From: an uncultured Rhodobacterales bacterium
Lineage (GTDB): Bacteria; Pseudomonadota; Alphaproteobacteria; Rhodobacterales; Rhodobacteraceae
Direction of reading: 5' to 3'
DNA length: 64,000 nucleotides
Assembly (NCBI GenBank): GCA_964579325.1
Contig: CAZOHN010000001.1
Span: 66,726 to 130,725 of the forward strand
Shown: one piece after another, positions 40,747-47,726 of the stretch
Position numbering within the stretch: the first letter of the stretch is position 1
Layout: every line of letters begins with the position of its first letter
Program-made: the position numbers and the translations under genes
Notes under the pieces: generated by a model
Told to the model about the DNA's origin: nothing
What the model saw: only the letters and a program-made list of their open reading frames with translations
Database searches by the model: none

Positions 40747-43164
40747 ATGGCCGAAGCAGCGCGAGCGCCCGAGGAATACGGCGCCGACTCTATCAAGGTT
40801 CTCAAGGGTTTGGAGGCCGTGCGGAAGCGGCCGGGGATGTACATCGGCGATACCGATGACGGCTCGGGCCTGCACCACATGGTCTACGAAGTCGTGGACA
40901 ACGGCATCGACGAGGCGCTGGCGGGACATGCGACCGAAGTGAGCGTAAAGATCCACGCCGACTCGAGCGTCTCGGTGCACGACAACGGACGGGGCATCCC
41001 GACCGACATCCACACCGAGGAGGGTGTGAGCGCGGCCGAGGTCATCATGACCCAGTTGCATGCTGGCGGGAAGTTCGACCAGAACAGCTACAAGGTCTCG
41101 GGCGGCTTGCACGGCGTCGGGGTCTCGGTCGTCAATGCCTTGTCGGAGTGGCTGGAACTCCGGATCTGGCGCGGCGGCAAGGAACATGTTGCGCGCTTCG
41201 AGATGGGCGAAACGGTCGAACCGCTGCGCGTGGTCGGCGACGCCAATGGGAAGAAGGGCACCGAGGTGCGTTTCCTCGCCTCGACCAAGACCTTCTCGAA
41301 CCTCGACTACCAATTCAAGACGCTGGAGACGCGGCTTCGCGAACTGGCTTTCCTGAACTCGGGCGTGCGGATCACGCTCGAGGACGAACGCCCCGCCGAG
41401 CCGCTGATGTCTGAACTCTACTATGACGGTGGCGTGCGCGAGTTCGTTCGCTATCTCGACCGGTCAAAGACCCCGATGATCCGCGAGCCCATCTTCATGA
41501 CGGGCGAGCGCGACGGGATTGGCGTTGAGGTGGCCATGTGGTGGAACGACAGCTACCACGAGACGGTGCTACCTTTTACCAACAACATCCCCCAGCGCGA
41601 TGGCGGCACCCATATGGCCGGGTTCCGTGGTGCGCTGACGCGGTCGATCAACACCTACGCGCAGACCAGCGGCATCGCGAAGCGGGAGAAAGTCAGCTTC
41701 ACGGGCGACGACGCACGCGAGGGCCTGACCTGTGTGCTGTCAGTGAAAGTGCCGGACCCGAAGTTCTCCAGCCAGACCAAGGATAAACTGGTCAGTTCGG
41801 AAGTGCGCCCGGCCGTCGAGAACCTGGTTAACGAGAAGCTTTCGGAGTGGTTCGAGGAGCATCCGCAGGAAGCCAGGCTGATCGTCGGCAAGATCATCGA
41901 GGCGGCGCTTGCTCGCGAAGCAGCGCGGAAGGCGCGCGAACTGACGCGGCGAAAGTCTGCGATGGACGTCGCGAACCTTCCCGGGAAGCTGGCGGATTGC
42001 CAGGAGAATGATCCGGCGAAATCCGAGATCTTTCTTGTCGAGGGTGACAGTGCCGGCGGGTCGGCCAAGCAGGGGCGCAGCCGGGCGAACCAGGCCGTGC
42101 TGCCGCTCCGGGGCAAGATCCTCAACGTCGAACGCGCGCGTTTCGACCGGATGCTGTCGAGCCAGGAGATCGGTACGCTGATCACGGCGCTCGGAACGGG
42201 AATCGGCCGCGACGAGTTCAACGTGGCCAAGCTGCGCTACCACAAGATCGTCATAATGACCGACGCCGACGTCGATGGCGCCCATATCCGTACGCTCTTG
42301 CTGACGTTCTTCTTCCGGCAGATGCCGCAGCTGATCGACGGAGGGTATCTCTACATCGCCCAGCCGCCGCTCTACAAGGTCGCGCGGGGACGGTCGGAGG
42401 TCTATCTCAAGGACCAGGCTGCACTGGAAGACTATCTGGTCCAGATGGGAACCGACGGGGCCGCCCTGCGTCTCGGCAATGGCGAGGAGATTGCCGGGGC
42501 CGATCTTGCGCGGGTAGTCGATGAGGCGCGAACGGTCCGGCGTGTCCTCGGAGCTTTCCCAACGCACTACCCCGCGCACATTCTCGAACAGGCTGCGATC
42601 GCGGGAGCGTTGCGGCCCGGGCAGGTGGACAGCGACCCGCAGGGCACTGCTGATGCGGTAGCGCGCCGGCTCGACCTGATCGCGCTCGAATACGAGCGCG
42701 GCTGGCAGGGTCGGCCGACACAGGACCATGGCATCAGGTTCGCGCGGCTCCTGCGCGGGGTCGAGGAAGTCCGCACGCTCGACGGGCCGGTATTGCGGTC
42801 AGGCGAGTCGCGGCGGCTTGGAAGCCATACCGAGACGCTCCAGGAAGTGTACGCCCAGCCCGCGCGGCTTGTGCGCAAGGACCGCGAGCAGCTTGTACAC
42901 GGACCTGTAGAATTGCTGTCGATGATCCTGTCCGAGGGCGAAAAGGGGCTCTCGCTCCAGCGCTACAAGGGGCTTGGCGAAATGAACCCCGAGCAACTCT
43001 GGGAGACGACGCTCGACCCCGAGGCCCGGACGTTGCTTCAGGTGAAGGTCGACGATCTGGCGGAAGCCGACGACATCTTCACCAAGCTGATGGGCGACGT
43101 GGTTGAACCGCGCCGCGAGTTCATCCAGCAGAACGCCCTCAACGTCGAGAACCTGGACTTCTAG
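40747..43164 (+). CDS. gyrB: DNA gyrase subunit B
   Basis: 805 aa ([51 protein letters not shown]-terminal ENLDF). Confidence 0.95.
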
Positions 43165-43901
43165 CGCAGCGCACGGAGCGCTGCGGCTTCCTCATCCGGC
43201 TCGAGAACACCGCCCGCGCCTATGGCGTCGAGCCAGACGTCCAACGCTTCGGTCGACGAGGCCGGCAAGTAGCCGTCGCCATCCGGCGATGTCGCCGCGA
43301 CGAAGCGCAGATCCCAGGATGGACCTTCGACACAGGCGACGGCGAGGCGGGCAGTCGACGCCGAGTCGATCTCGAACTCGCGACACAGGATCCCGGACGA
43401 ATCCGTGAAGGAGGAAATGACCGTTAGGGTTTCGTCCGAACCGATCCCGGCGCCTGTACCCGAGGGGAGCGTGTCAAGGAGGCGAGCCACCGCGCCGTCG
43501 TCCAGGCCGGCGAAGACCAGCCCGTCCACCGGCACGGGTCCGGTCCTGACCATCCAGCCGGCGGCCGCCCCGATGGCGAGGGCGATGGCTGCGGCGGTGG
43601 GAAGCTGCCAGACCGGGCGGACTGGGGAAGCGCGGCGGCGTGCCGCAAGGTCGATCACCGGGGCTTCGACCGATAGCGTTGACGCTCTCTCCGCAGCCAG
43701 GGCGCGAATGCGCGCGGTCAGTGCGTCGGGAACCTCAGCGCCGCCGACCCCGGACCTGAGCGCGGCGCGGACTGCCCTCATCTGCTCCACGCGGTTAGCA
43801 AGCGTCGGGTCGTCCAGTATGGCCGCCTGCACCGTAGCGGCCTCACCCGGCAGCAGCTCACCGTCTGCGAACGCCACGAGCATTTCATCAGTAATCTGCA
43901 T
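43161..43901 (-). CDS. Anti-sigma factor (membrane-spanning, periplasmic C-domain)
   Basis: 246 aa. N-terminal anti-sigma helix ([28 protein letters not shown]), one TM segment ([21 protein letters not shown]) and a C-terminal domain. It lies 48 nt downstream of the ECF sigma gene. Confidence 0.75.
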
Positions 43902-43949
43902 ACGGTGTTCCTTCCCCGAAACCGTTCTGCATGAAGAACGTTACCTCGG

Positions 43950-44441
43950 TCACTTTATTCCCAGCTTCTGCGCAACGGCGATCCGCGCCCGCGCCAGGCG
44001 GCTCATCACCGTGCCGATCGGAATACCCAGCACTTCGGCGGTCTCCTTGTAGGTGAGTTCCTCAACACAAACGAGAAGGATGACTTCCCGCTGGTCCACC
44101 GGCAAACTGGCGATCGCCGCCTCGGCTTCTGACAGTGCGATCCGATTCATCGCGATATCCTCGCCATCGACAGTTGCCGCTTCCGGCATATCGTCGATGT
44201 CAACGGCCACGCCCCGGACGGCACCGCGCCGGGTATGGTCGATCCAGGCGTTGCGCAGGATGCGCAGCAGCCACGCATCGAGCCGCGTCGCGGGATCGAA
44301 CCGGTCGCGGGCGGCGAGGGCGCGCTCGGCCGTGATCTGGACGAGGTCGTCCGCGAGGTCGGATCGTCGGCTGAGAGAGAGGGCGAACCGCCGGAGATTG
44401 GGCAGTAGCGCGATCAGCTCTTCTATGAAGCGATCGGACAT
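43950..44441 (-). CDS. ECF-type RNA polymerase sigma factor
   Basis: Region 2 (DLVQITAERAL...RLDAWLLRILRNAWIDHTR) and region 4 (EVILLVCVEELTYKETAEVLGIPIGTVMSRLARAR). ATG at 44441; the track's GTG at 44453 is the alternative. Confidence 0.88.
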   Translation of the reverse strand: MSDRFIEELIALLPNLRRFALSLSRRSDLADDLVQITAERALAARDRFDPATRLDAWLLRILRNAWIDHTRRGAVRGVAVDIDDMPEAATVDGEDIAMNRIALSEAEAAIASLPVDQREVILLVCVEELTYKETAEVLGIPIGTVMSRLARARIAVAQKLGIK

Positions 44442-44475
44442 GACACTCGGCACCCTTGTATCAAACTCGCTCGAT

Positions 44476-44502
44476 CGGGAATATTCCGCGTCACCAGACG
44501 TA
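44476..44502 (+). promoter_or_regulatory. ECF-type promoter candidate P1 upstream of the S8 peptidase gene
   Basis: CGGGAATA-N15-CGTA. The -35 is embedded in the palindrome GGAATATTCC (44478-44487), and the GTG start lies 62 nt downstream. Same motif as P2 and P3. Confidence 0.55.
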
Positions 44503-44564
44503 TACCCCGAGCCTCCCCGGTCAATCCGGGGTTGATCGATACTGGACGAAGGAGGACAAGACCA

Positions 44565-47275: not shown

Positions 47276-47320
47276 GAAAGCCGCTCGGAAGTGTTTGCGT
47301 GCCATCGCGCCGCCAGCCGC

Positions 47321-47355
47321 AAACGAAGAACGCCGGTCTTGACGGACCGGCGTTC
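47321..47355 (-). terminator. Rho-independent terminator after mini-gene 2
   Basis: Minus strand reads GAACGCCGGTC-CGTCAA-GACCGGCGTTC followed by TTCGTTT. Confidence 0.65.
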
Positions 47356-47380
47356 CCAGGAGAATTCGGACGGGCAGCGA

Positions 47381-47635
47381 TCAATCGTCGTCGTCGTCAC
47401 GGTCACCGCGATCATCATCATCGTCGTCACGGCCCCGGCCCCGACCATCGTCGTCGTCATCATCGTCTCGACCGTAGCGATAACTGCGCATCTCGCTGCG
47501 AGAGCCGCGCTGGCCGCTAAGTGCGGGCTGCAGGAGTTGCTTGATCCAGCGCGGCATGTCGTCGGCTGCGGCGGGGGCCGAAAGCGTTGTCGTGGACACC
47601 AGTGCGGTGATCAGGAGCGTGGAGATCCGTTTCAT
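47381..47635 (-). CDS. Small secreted protein 2: same signal peptide and PRWIKQL motif, poly-Asp/Arg-Gly tail
   Basis: 84 aa: MKRISTLLITALVSTTTLSAPAAADDMPRWIKQLLQP...RSYRYGRDDDDDDDGRGRGRDDDDDDRGDRDDDDD. The first 26 residues are identical to protein 1. Confidence 0.7.
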   Translation of the reverse strand: MKRISTLLITALVSTTTLSAPAAADDMPRWIKQLLQPALSGQRGSRSEMRSYRYGRDDDDDDDGRGRGRDDDDDDRGDRDDDDD

Positions 47636-47682
47636 GTTGCATCCTTTCCAATGATGCAGCCATCAGGCGGCTGTATTGGAAG

Positions 47683-47709
47683 AACGGACGGTGCCGGCCT
47701 TTATTCCCG
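47683..47709 (-). promoter_or_regulatory. ECF-type promoter candidate P3 upstream of mini-gene 2
   Basis: Minus strand reads CGGGAATA-N15-CGTT, 47 nt upstream of the ATG at 47635 and just downstream of the fmt stop. Confidence 0.55.
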
Positions 47710-47726
47710 CCAAGTCTTCGATGCTT

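Follow-up and report, generated by a model that had tools for sequence, protein, structure and literature searches.

Positions 43161-47710 of the window (by which we mean the whole stretch of 64,000 nucleotides (nt) analysed here, from an uncultured Rhodobacterales bacterium) hold six genes, for an anti-sigma factor, a sigma factor, a secreted subtilase of peptidase family S8, a 236-amino-acid (aa) protein of family DUF6065 and two small secreted proteins, mini1 and mini2, and it is the control of these genes by their own sigma factor that concerns us (Table 1). Independent public gene calls on the same 57.7-kb contig (ena:ERZ909567 k127_758316), whose source is a stromatolite metagenome (SRR3310977, PRJNA315555), served as a cross-check and give open reading frames (ORFs) of 246, 163, 464, 236, 119 and 84 aa for the same six products. 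The gene calls of the first-pass annotation of this DNA agree with them, except that the start of the S8 gene had to be corrected to the GTG at 44565, in frame with the ORF 44532-45959.

Having sigma2 and sigma4 regions only (Pfam Sigma70_r2, residues 12-73, and Sigma70_r4_2, residues 106-154, with no other regions), the sigma factor is of the extracytoplasmic function (ECF) type; its sigma2 region also shows weak similarity to Pfam PhyR_sigma2. It is 57% identical to RpoE6 of Sinorhizobium meliloti, in conserved synteny, and through this orthology can be assigned to group ECF26, in which RpoE6 has been placed (PMC6180224; PMC10880074). The anti-sigma gene starts 48 nt downstream of the sigma gene. 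Its product has NCBIfam anti-sigma matches over residues 6-118, under the curated cut-offs, and aligns with S. meliloti EcfR6 across residues 4-246 at 37% identity; a single hydrophobic/transmembrane segment is predicted at residues 100-118, leaving approximately 128 residues for the periplasm. A search of the anti-sigma sequence against PDB sequences gave no significant match.

The S8 gene diverges from the sigma gene across a 123-nt intergenic region. Its product matches Pfam Peptidase_S8 (E=3.4e-41) with the triad D216/H249/S404 (motifs DTG216, HGT249 and GTSFA402), and is laid out as a signal peptide, a poly-Asp/Gly/Asn tract right after the predicted cleavage site, a pro-region and the catalytic domain. 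Classification as a mycosin was rejected, the best NCBIfam match (TIGR03921) scoring 146.7 bits against a cut-off of 278.75, and no type VII secretion system genes occur near the S8 gene among the ORFs listed around the cluster. The DUF6065 protein has no signal peptide, and its gene is predicted to be co-transcribed with S8 given the gap of 21 nt and the absence of a promoter motif of its own in the window. In mini1 a Sec-type signal peptide is followed by a short conserved segment and a patch rich in D and R, after which come (SSN/SN)n repeats and a DDDD at the C-terminus; mini2 shares the signal peptide and the PRW(I/L)KQL segment, with poly-Asp/Arg in place of the Ser/Asn repeats. Neither has a family match in Pfam, NCBIfam or PADLOC. 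Both mini genes end in strong hairpin terminators, as judged by terminator scan and folding, and the hairpin between the convergent DUF6065 and mini1 genes is the predicted terminator of mini1 and probably also that of the S8-DUF6065 operon. On the strand opposite the Ser/Asn repeat of mini1 (46857-47042, +) lies a spurious 61-aa Glu/Leu-rich ORF (MEFDEELLEELEE...), which gene callers could mis-annotate in related genomes. A role of the cluster in anti-phage defence was considered and rejected, as PADLOC gives generic subtilase-domain matches for S8 and none for the other five proteins.

Table 1. Predicted features of the six-gene cluster, in coordinates of the window.
Feature	Coordinates	Strand	Evidence
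Anti-sigma factor, 246 aa, EcfR6 orthologue	43161..43901	-	Weak NCBIfam matches, 37% identity to EcfR6
P4, anti-sigma promoter, ECF26-type, inside 3' end of sigma ORF	43937..43962	-	GGGAATA-N15-CGTT
ECF sigma factor, 163 aa, RpoE6 orthologue	43950..44441	-	Pfam, 57% identity to RpoE6 and synteny
Tentative weak sigma-gene promoter	44464..44487	-	GGAATA-N15-aGTT, sequence reading
P1, S8-DUF6065 operon promoter, ECF26-type	44476..44502	+	CGGGAATA-N15-CGTA
Secreted S8 subtilase, 464 aa	44565..45959	+	Pfam Peptidase_S8, 49% identity to SMa0142
DUF6065 protein, 236 aa, SMa0148 orthologue	45981..46691	+	Pfam DUF6065
GC-rich hairpin between convergent DUF6065 and mini1	46795..46815	.	Terminator scan and folding
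mini1, 119 aa, SMa0146 family	46841..47200	-	ORF and family comparison
P2, mini1 promoter, ECF26-type	47249..47275	-	CGGGAATA-N15-CGTT
mini2 terminator, 13-bp GC-rich stem then UUCUUCGUUUG	47326..47357	-	Folding z-score -3.4
mini2, 84 aa, local mini1 paralogue	47381..47635	-	ORF and alignment
P3, mini2 promoter, ECF26-type	47683..47709	-	CGGGAATA-N15-CGTT

Three aligned motifs had been reported upstream of the S8 gene and the two mini genes, 47-62 nt from the start codons, and both their sequences and their places are as quoted. The pattern CGGGAATA-N15-CGT has three matches in the whole window, at 44476-44501 (+), 47275-47250 (-) and 47709-47684 (-), compared with 0.01 expected from 100 dinucleotide-preserving shuffles of the window, not one of which reaches three (0/100). 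The start codon follows the last base of the -10 block at a distance of 62 nt for S8 (GTG 44565), 48 nt for mini1 (ATG 47200) and 47 nt for mini2 (ATG 47635). While these three copies stand, a fourth had been overlooked before the anti-sigma gene: tGGGAATAaagtgaccgaggtaaCGTTcttc, at 43962-43938 (-), is found once the first C of the pattern is dropped, and in its context (tGGGAATA-N15-CGTTcttc) runs over the sigma stop codon, with 35 nt left between its end and the anti-sigma ATG. The exhaustive motif scan of all 64 kb, left undone in the first pass, has now been run with looser patterns and yields no further good copy. In an alignment of the mini1 and mini2 DNA the 5' coding region is conserved and the sequence before it has diverged, with the -35 and -10 blocks as the exception. 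The -35 element of P1 sits in a perfect 10-bp palindrome, GGAATATTCC (44478-44487), in the divergent sigma/S8 intergenic region, with GGAATA readable on both strands, and in one related locus (L055) the same palindrome has CGT at the correct spacing on both sides. A weak autoregulatory promoter of the sigma gene may share this palindromic GGAATATTCC with P1; against such autoregulation speaks the rpoE6 promoter of S. meliloti, which looks RpoD/RpoH-like (PMC6180224).

The composition of the cluster had been thought to be without a described counterpart, a view that does not hold, as the same regulon is that of RpoE6/EcfR6 in S. meliloti (PMC6180224). In the study of Lang et al. (2018) every ECF sigma factor of S. 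meliloti was overexpressed, and transcription start sites were mapped (PMC6180224). Overexpression of RpoE6 (SMa0143, ECF26) induced SMa0142 (log fold change 4.7), ecfR6 (SMa0144, 3.6) and SMa0148 (6.5), together with SMa0146; the start sites of the targets lie downstream of GGAATA...CGTT, and the ecfR6 promoter was proposed to be inside the rpoE6 ORF (PMC6180224). SMa0142 is a serine protease gene divergent from rpoE6 with a mapped start site, the divergent protease being a conserved context, and the cross-species ECF26 consensus is -35 GGAATA / -10 GT (PMC6180224). The authors could assign no function to RpoE6 (PMC6180224), which stays in group 26 in a newer classification and activates an ECF26 promoter (PMC10880074).

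The record of pSymA that we used (L081) is without annotation, and locus tags were set by locating the published promoter sequences on it. The SMa0148 promoter lies directly upstream of a DUF6065 gene whose product shares 66% identity with the window protein, the SMa0142 promoter upstream of an S8 gene whose product is 49% identical and also begins with poly-Asp/Gly, and the ecfR6 promoter inside rpoE6, with sigma and anti-sigma factors 57% and 37% identical to those of the window. We also find an unreported motif copy before a 160-aa ORF with long (SSN)n, at 7899-8381 (-) of the record, in the position expected for SMa0146. By position and sequence we thus identify SMa0148 as the DUF6065 gene and SMa0146 as the putative mini-protein gene, and because the published promoters sit upstream of the matching pSymA genes the window cluster is orthologous to the RpoE6 regulon. 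The two share an ECF26 sigma factor, a downstream membrane anti-sigma factor, a divergent poly-Asp/Gly S8 protease, DUF6065 and a secreted Ser/Asn-repeat mini-protein, with GGAATA-N15-CGTT in equivalent places, including the anti-sigma promoter within the sigma ORF. They differ in gene order, in that SMa0148 has its own promoter whereas S8 and DUF6065 form one operon in the window, and in the second mini gene of the window (mini2, with poly-Asp/Arg and no Ser/Asn repeats). Furthermore, the Sinorhizobium mini-protein has no poly-Asp at its C-terminus, where it reads ...SYRPGKLWHTGR; SMa0139, a target of the glyoxalase family, is not seen in the window cluster; and the S. meliloti regulon is on a megaplasmid whereas ours is on a chromosome (gyrB-fmt) of a stromatolite Rhodobacterales host.

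Other known systems resemble the cluster less closely. RpoE1/RpoE4 of S. meliloti and subgroup ECF26s1 share its sigma group, anti-sigma architecture and -35 GGAATA consensus, but the targets of RpoE1/RpoE4 lie in sulfite response and oxidation, with no sorT seen in the window cluster, and ECF26s1 is linked to catalase and cytochrome b561 genes, neither of which is seen there. The EcfG/NepR/PhyR system (ECF15) has a similar promoter shape (GGAAC-N16-17-CGTT), and the weak PhyR_sigma2 similarity of the window sigma factor recalls it; unlike the short cytoplasmic NepR, however, the anti-sigma factor here spans the membrane and has 246 aa, and the -35 element reads GGAATA. A PhyR-like gene was not found among the ORFs listed for 41-50 kb of the window.

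DUF6065 has more than 1600 homologues, and a scan of one genome per species gave the comparative set used here, 80 loci with DUF6065 at 65-80% identity and 1.1 Mb in total. It covers Rhodobacterales (Tabrizicola, Gemmobacter, Rhodobacter, Pseudorhodobacter, Falsirhodobacter, Rhodovulum and Thetidibacter) and Hyphomicrobiales (Rhizobium, Sinorhizobium, Ensifer, Neorhizobium, Shinella, Aminobacter, Devosia and Salinarimonas); the nearest named relatives of the window DUF6065 gene, at approximately 79% identity, are in Tabrizicola and Rhodobacter species. A mini1-like ORF is present by tblastn in 77/80 loci, adjoining DUF6065 in nearly all, and the sigma, anti-sigma and S8 genes are present in 52, 53 and 57, respectively. 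All five gene types occur together in 50 of the 80 loci within a median span of 4.1 kb, in seven orders/orientations, and this linkage, kept through seven rearrangements, argues for a functional unit. The divergent sigma/S8 pairing is found in most of the 50 complete loci and in pSymA. The flanks are less constant: the window cluster is chromosomal, inserted between gyrB and fmt, and gyrB lies beside the cluster in one related locus only (L028, with a partial match in L022), while no related locus has fmt there. Rhizobiaceae plasmids do not all carry the module.

The promoter motif follows the genes. GGAATA-N15-CGT has 219 copies in the 80 loci compared with 3.2 +/- 2.1 in Markov-1 random sequence (approximately 70-fold), and for 185 of them a gene of one of the five types begins 20-300 nt downstream. 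Loci with an upstream motif number 59-60 for the mini gene, 44 for DUF6065, 34-42 for S8, 32 for the anti-sigma gene and 16 for the sigma gene, at tight, gene-specific distances (median from motif start to start codon 72, 56, 96, 59 and 56 nt, respectively). As in the window, the anti-sigma copy is always within the 3' end of the sigma ORF, and when the looser pattern GGAA[TC] is searched the large majority of copies have T and A at positions 5 and 6 (GGAATA). Both the co-occurrence of the genes across Rhodobacterales and the conservation of the motif, which the first-pass annotation had put forward for comparison, are therefore seen in these loci. In 14 loci with at least 6 kb on both sides (L019, L020, L023, L035, L051, L053, L054, L057, L058, L059, L065, L066, L068 and L075) the DUF6065-mini pair stands without a sigma, anti-sigma or S8 gene within 6-8 kb, and in 11 listed of these 14 the ECF26-type motif precedes both genes. 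Since the motif is kept there with no sigma gene nearby, the sigma factor must be encoded elsewhere in those genomes; the pair appears to be the core output, of which the regulator can be unlinked.

Some motif copies stand before other genes. In L030 (6743-7824, +) GGAATA-N15-CGTT precedes the gene of a 343-aa RTX nonapeptide-repeat protein (Pfam HemolysinCabind, E=6e-18), and at least six loci of Rhodobacterales (L030, L012, L033, L038, L043 and L047) have an RTX gene between those for S8 and DUF6065. It is probably a lineage-specific member of the regulon. In several Rhizobium loci (L070, 10845-12087 (+), also L071, L072 and L078) a motif copy stands before a gene for a glycerate kinase (Pfam Gly_kinase, E=3e-136), itself located downstream of a CitMHS-family transporter gene; the kinase gene may be another lineage-specific target. 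More good copies lie kilobases away from the core genes in Stappiaceae and Rhizobium loci (L054 ~3418 and ~1378 (-); L057 ~3348 and ~1304 (-); L063 4700 (+), 4643 (-) and 2966 (-)).

We consider it very likely that the cluster is a self-contained ECF26 sigma/anti-sigma module, orthologous to RpoE6/EcfR6, that drives local promoters. According to this model the single-pass membrane anti-sigma factor would, as expected from its family, keep the sigma factor sequestered and let it go on an envelope signal. Freed sigma factor would then steer RNA polymerase to the GGAATA-N15-CGT(T/A) promoters of four units, the S8-DUF6065 operon (P1), mini1 (P2), mini2 (P3) and the anti-sigma gene (P4), and transcription of the last from P4 within the sigma ORF would provide negative feedback. 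A fifth promoter, weak and placed before the sigma gene itself, may share the palindromic -35 with P1. The outputs would be a secreted subtilase with a poly-Asp/Gly mature N-terminus, a cytoplasmic DUF6065 protein of predicted dUTPase fold and one or two secreted mini-proteins, disordered and very hydrophilic, with Ser/Asn repeats and poly-Asp tails. The regulatory wiring is shown by motif statistics, phylogenetic footprinting and the experiments on the S. meliloti orthologue. Control of the S8-DUF6065 operon and both mini genes by the ECF pair through GGAAT-N16-CGT, as first suggested from the window alone, is thus supported by the roughly 70-fold enrichment, the linkage in seven gene orders and the RpoE6 data.

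The mini-proteins form a family of their own. The 69 full-length orthologues have a median length of 127 aa; each begins with what looks like a signal peptide, and the reading frame is kept in every one. Their median Ser+Asn content is 51% and their median unbroken [SN] run 52 residues; an Asp run closes the C-terminus in 59/69, and many have a D/R-rich patch before the repeats. What the family conserves is a signal peptide, Ser/Asn repeats and an Asp tail. The repeat of window mini1 uses five Ser and two Asn codons, which argues for selection at the protein level and not for a DNA microsatellite. Mini2 looks like a family member with an expanded D/R patch and no Ser/Asn repeat, and the PRW(L/I)KQL segment, searched for in the other loci, matches only the two window genes and is lineage-specific. 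Sinorhizobium/Ensifer minis (L081, L066 and L069) have no poly-Asp end and instead a conserved basic end, ...SYRPGKLWHTGR or ...YRSGKLWHTR. N-glycosylation sequons (N-S-S) were considered and rejected, many members consisting mainly of SN repeats without N-x-S/T. Among the S8 orthologues the poly-Asp/Gly tract follows straight after the signal peptide in 53 of the 54 with a recovered N-terminus.

For DUF6065 a literature search gives no paper, and a search against PDB sequences returned nothing significant. A first AlphaFold model from a shallow alignment had a predicted local distance difference test (pLDDT) score of 48 and its fold search gave no significant match. When a second, 31%-identical clade (Meso-/Bradyrhizobium and a Rhizobium plasmid) was added to the alignment, the new model reached pLDDT 86.8 and a predicted template modelling (pTM) score of 0.79. 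The top 50 Foldseek matches of this model in the PDB are all trimeric dUTPases/dCTP deaminases (probability 1.00, E values from 1.4e-4 and target-normalised TM-scores of 0.5-0.72), and the modelling indicates that DUF6065 has a dUTPase-like fold, of which it would be a divergent member. An hhalign comparison with E. coli Dut sets GVVDTD against motif III and PIVQVI against motif IV, at a probability of only 6.5%; the invariant residues R144, D157, D159 and Q188 lie in or near these segments. The conserved C-terminus is Trp/Tyr/Arg-rich (G226, W227, Y228, R229, R233 and R236). Like the dUTPases in predicted fold, DUF6065 differs from them in being approximately 90 residues longer, in having no sequence-family match and in the lack of a Gly-rich motif V visible in its C-terminal sequence. 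The second clade of DUF6065-like proteins (P0121-P0240), from Mesorhizobium and Bradyrhizobium, is 31-37% identical to the window protein and has no precomputed Pfam domain listed, with P0125 matching no Pfam family; in the one second-clade locus examined (L082 6001-6711, on a plasmid of Rhizobium sp. CB3090) the gene lies beside one for a tetratricopeptide repeat (TPR) protein, with no sigma, S8 or mini gene. What is new here is the recognition of the mini-proteins as a widespread family, the near-constancy of the S8 poly-Asp/Gly tract and the prediction of a dUTPase-like fold for DUF6065.

Several points weigh against the reading of the cluster as a functional RpoE6-type module. Its host is known solely from the stromatolite metagenome contig. 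On the signal side, conditions that activate the general stress response left RpoE6-specific targets uninduced in S. meliloti, the rpoE6-ecfR6 deletion was among the ECF sigma mutants called dispensable for nitrogen-fixing symbiosis, and 67% of RpoE6-induced genes are shared with the RpoE2 (ECF15) regulon, which makes cross-recognition possible (PMC6180224). No Pfam match to the dUTPase families was found at E<=10 among 68 DUF6065 members, and the bases of any functional guess are poly-Asp composition, an RTX protein in some lineages and habitat. The overlap with RpoE2 is also what would be seen if the promoters were read mainly by another ECF sigma factor encoded elsewhere, of the EcfG type, with the local pair a mere neighbour, and the resemblance of the motif to the ECF15 consensus and the 14 loci with DUF6065 and mini but no sigma gene nearby point the same way. 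However, the -35 element is mostly GGAATA, the ECF26 signature, unlike GGAAC; SMa0142, SMa0144 and SMa0148 respond to RpoE6, the unique targets of which are not induced by RpoE2-activating stresses (PMC6180224); the sigma, anti-sigma and S8 genes remain linked to the targets in 50/80 loci through seven rearrangements; and the anti-sigma gene bears the same motif, as a feedback loop predicts. We regard control mainly by another sigma factor as very unlikely, with cross-talk from one possible as a minor input. That the motif copies are chance occurrences or remnants of local duplication, and the mini ORFs non-coding low-complexity DNA, deserves practically no credence. As mini1 and mini2 are paralogues the likeness of P2 and P3 could be common descent, and the repeat region also yields the spurious ORF on its opposite strand, but upstream of the mini genes the -35 and -10 blocks alone are conserved within diverged surroundings, P1 and P4 lie outside any duplication, the motif is enriched about 70-fold in other genomes, 69/69 full-length minis keep signal peptide and frame with five Ser and two Asn codons in the window repeat, and SMa0146 is induced by RpoE6 (PMC6180224). 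This explanation is refuted in practice by the enrichment, the upstream divergence and the family statistics.

The cluster could also be a protease-substrate or peptide-maturation system, in which the mini-proteins are cleaved by S8, perhaps after modification by DUF6065, to an active product (a signal, a matrix peptide or a nutrient reserve) and the sigma factor merely switches the system on. Subtilases mature many secreted peptides, S8 and mini are co-regulated and both exported, and the mini gene is present in 77/80 loci next to DUF6065 in nearly all. Against this, in 14 genomes DUF6065 and mini are retained although no S8 gene is linked to them, the mini repeats have no obvious conserved cleavage site, and since the minis have Sec signal peptides and DUF6065 has none they could meet it only before export. 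Maturation in the manner of ribosomally synthesized and post-translationally modified peptides (RiPPs) is disfavoured, the precursors having Sec signal peptides and no RiPP-type enzyme family being detected among the cluster proteins in Pfam or NCBIfam. We judge a maturation system of this kind, although compatible with the regulon, to be unlikely, and retain the ECF26 module as the explanation of the cluster.

What the module does for the cell can be suggested only tentatively. It is conceivable, although we would not call it probable, that it acts in the envelope or outside the cell, either in the handling of divalent cations (Ca2+) or in the hydration and remodelling of the cell surface; the minis or the anti-sigma factor might then be substrates that the subtilase processes. 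Among the roles offered by the first-pass annotation (a protease/substrate pair, a Ca2+ module or a matrix component), the Ca2+ theme has some circumstantial points in its favour, none of them decisive. Both exported proteins have poly-Asp, an RTX protein is co-regulated and the DNA comes from a stromatolite, all of which would fit a role in divalent cations or at the surface; bacteria of soil and fresh water have the module just as commonly. Asp-rich proteins that bind Ca2+ or act in biomineralisation include those with calsequestrin tails, phosphophoryn with its (DSS)n repeats and aspein. The minis resemble them in long poly-Asp and Ser-rich repeats and in being secreted and disordered, the likeness being one of composition alone with no homology. 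That DUF6065, mini and the poly-Asp subtilase, with RTX in some lineages, constitute an unrecognised alphaproteobacterial envelope module for Ca2+ binding or for mineral/surface interaction would be a long shot. As low-probability speculation, the small acidic secreted protein of rhizobia may belong to the class of Ca2+-dependent surface adhesin called rhicadhesin, the gene of which is still unidentified; whether it is one protein at all has been doubted in a study of 2024. With no Lys or Arg in its long repeat region such a protein would be hard to detect by tryptic proteomics.

As the regulatory logic is already known, the view of ECF sigma factors is unchanged. The window cluster adds to a known, experimentally defined RpoE6-type ECF26 regulon, and its value lies in the breadth of conservation, the core and the leads that it provides. 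The RpoE6-type regulon is a conserved five-gene module of at least two alphaproteobacterial orders, on chromosomes and plasmids, and not an oddity of a Sinorhizobium plasmid. Its core output appears as an invariant pair, DUF6065 and a secreted protein with Ser/Asn repeats and poly-Asp. For the tractable S. meliloti this gives leads in the predicted dUTPase-like fold of DUF6065, the poly-Asp on both exported proteins and the RTX co-regulation in some lineages.

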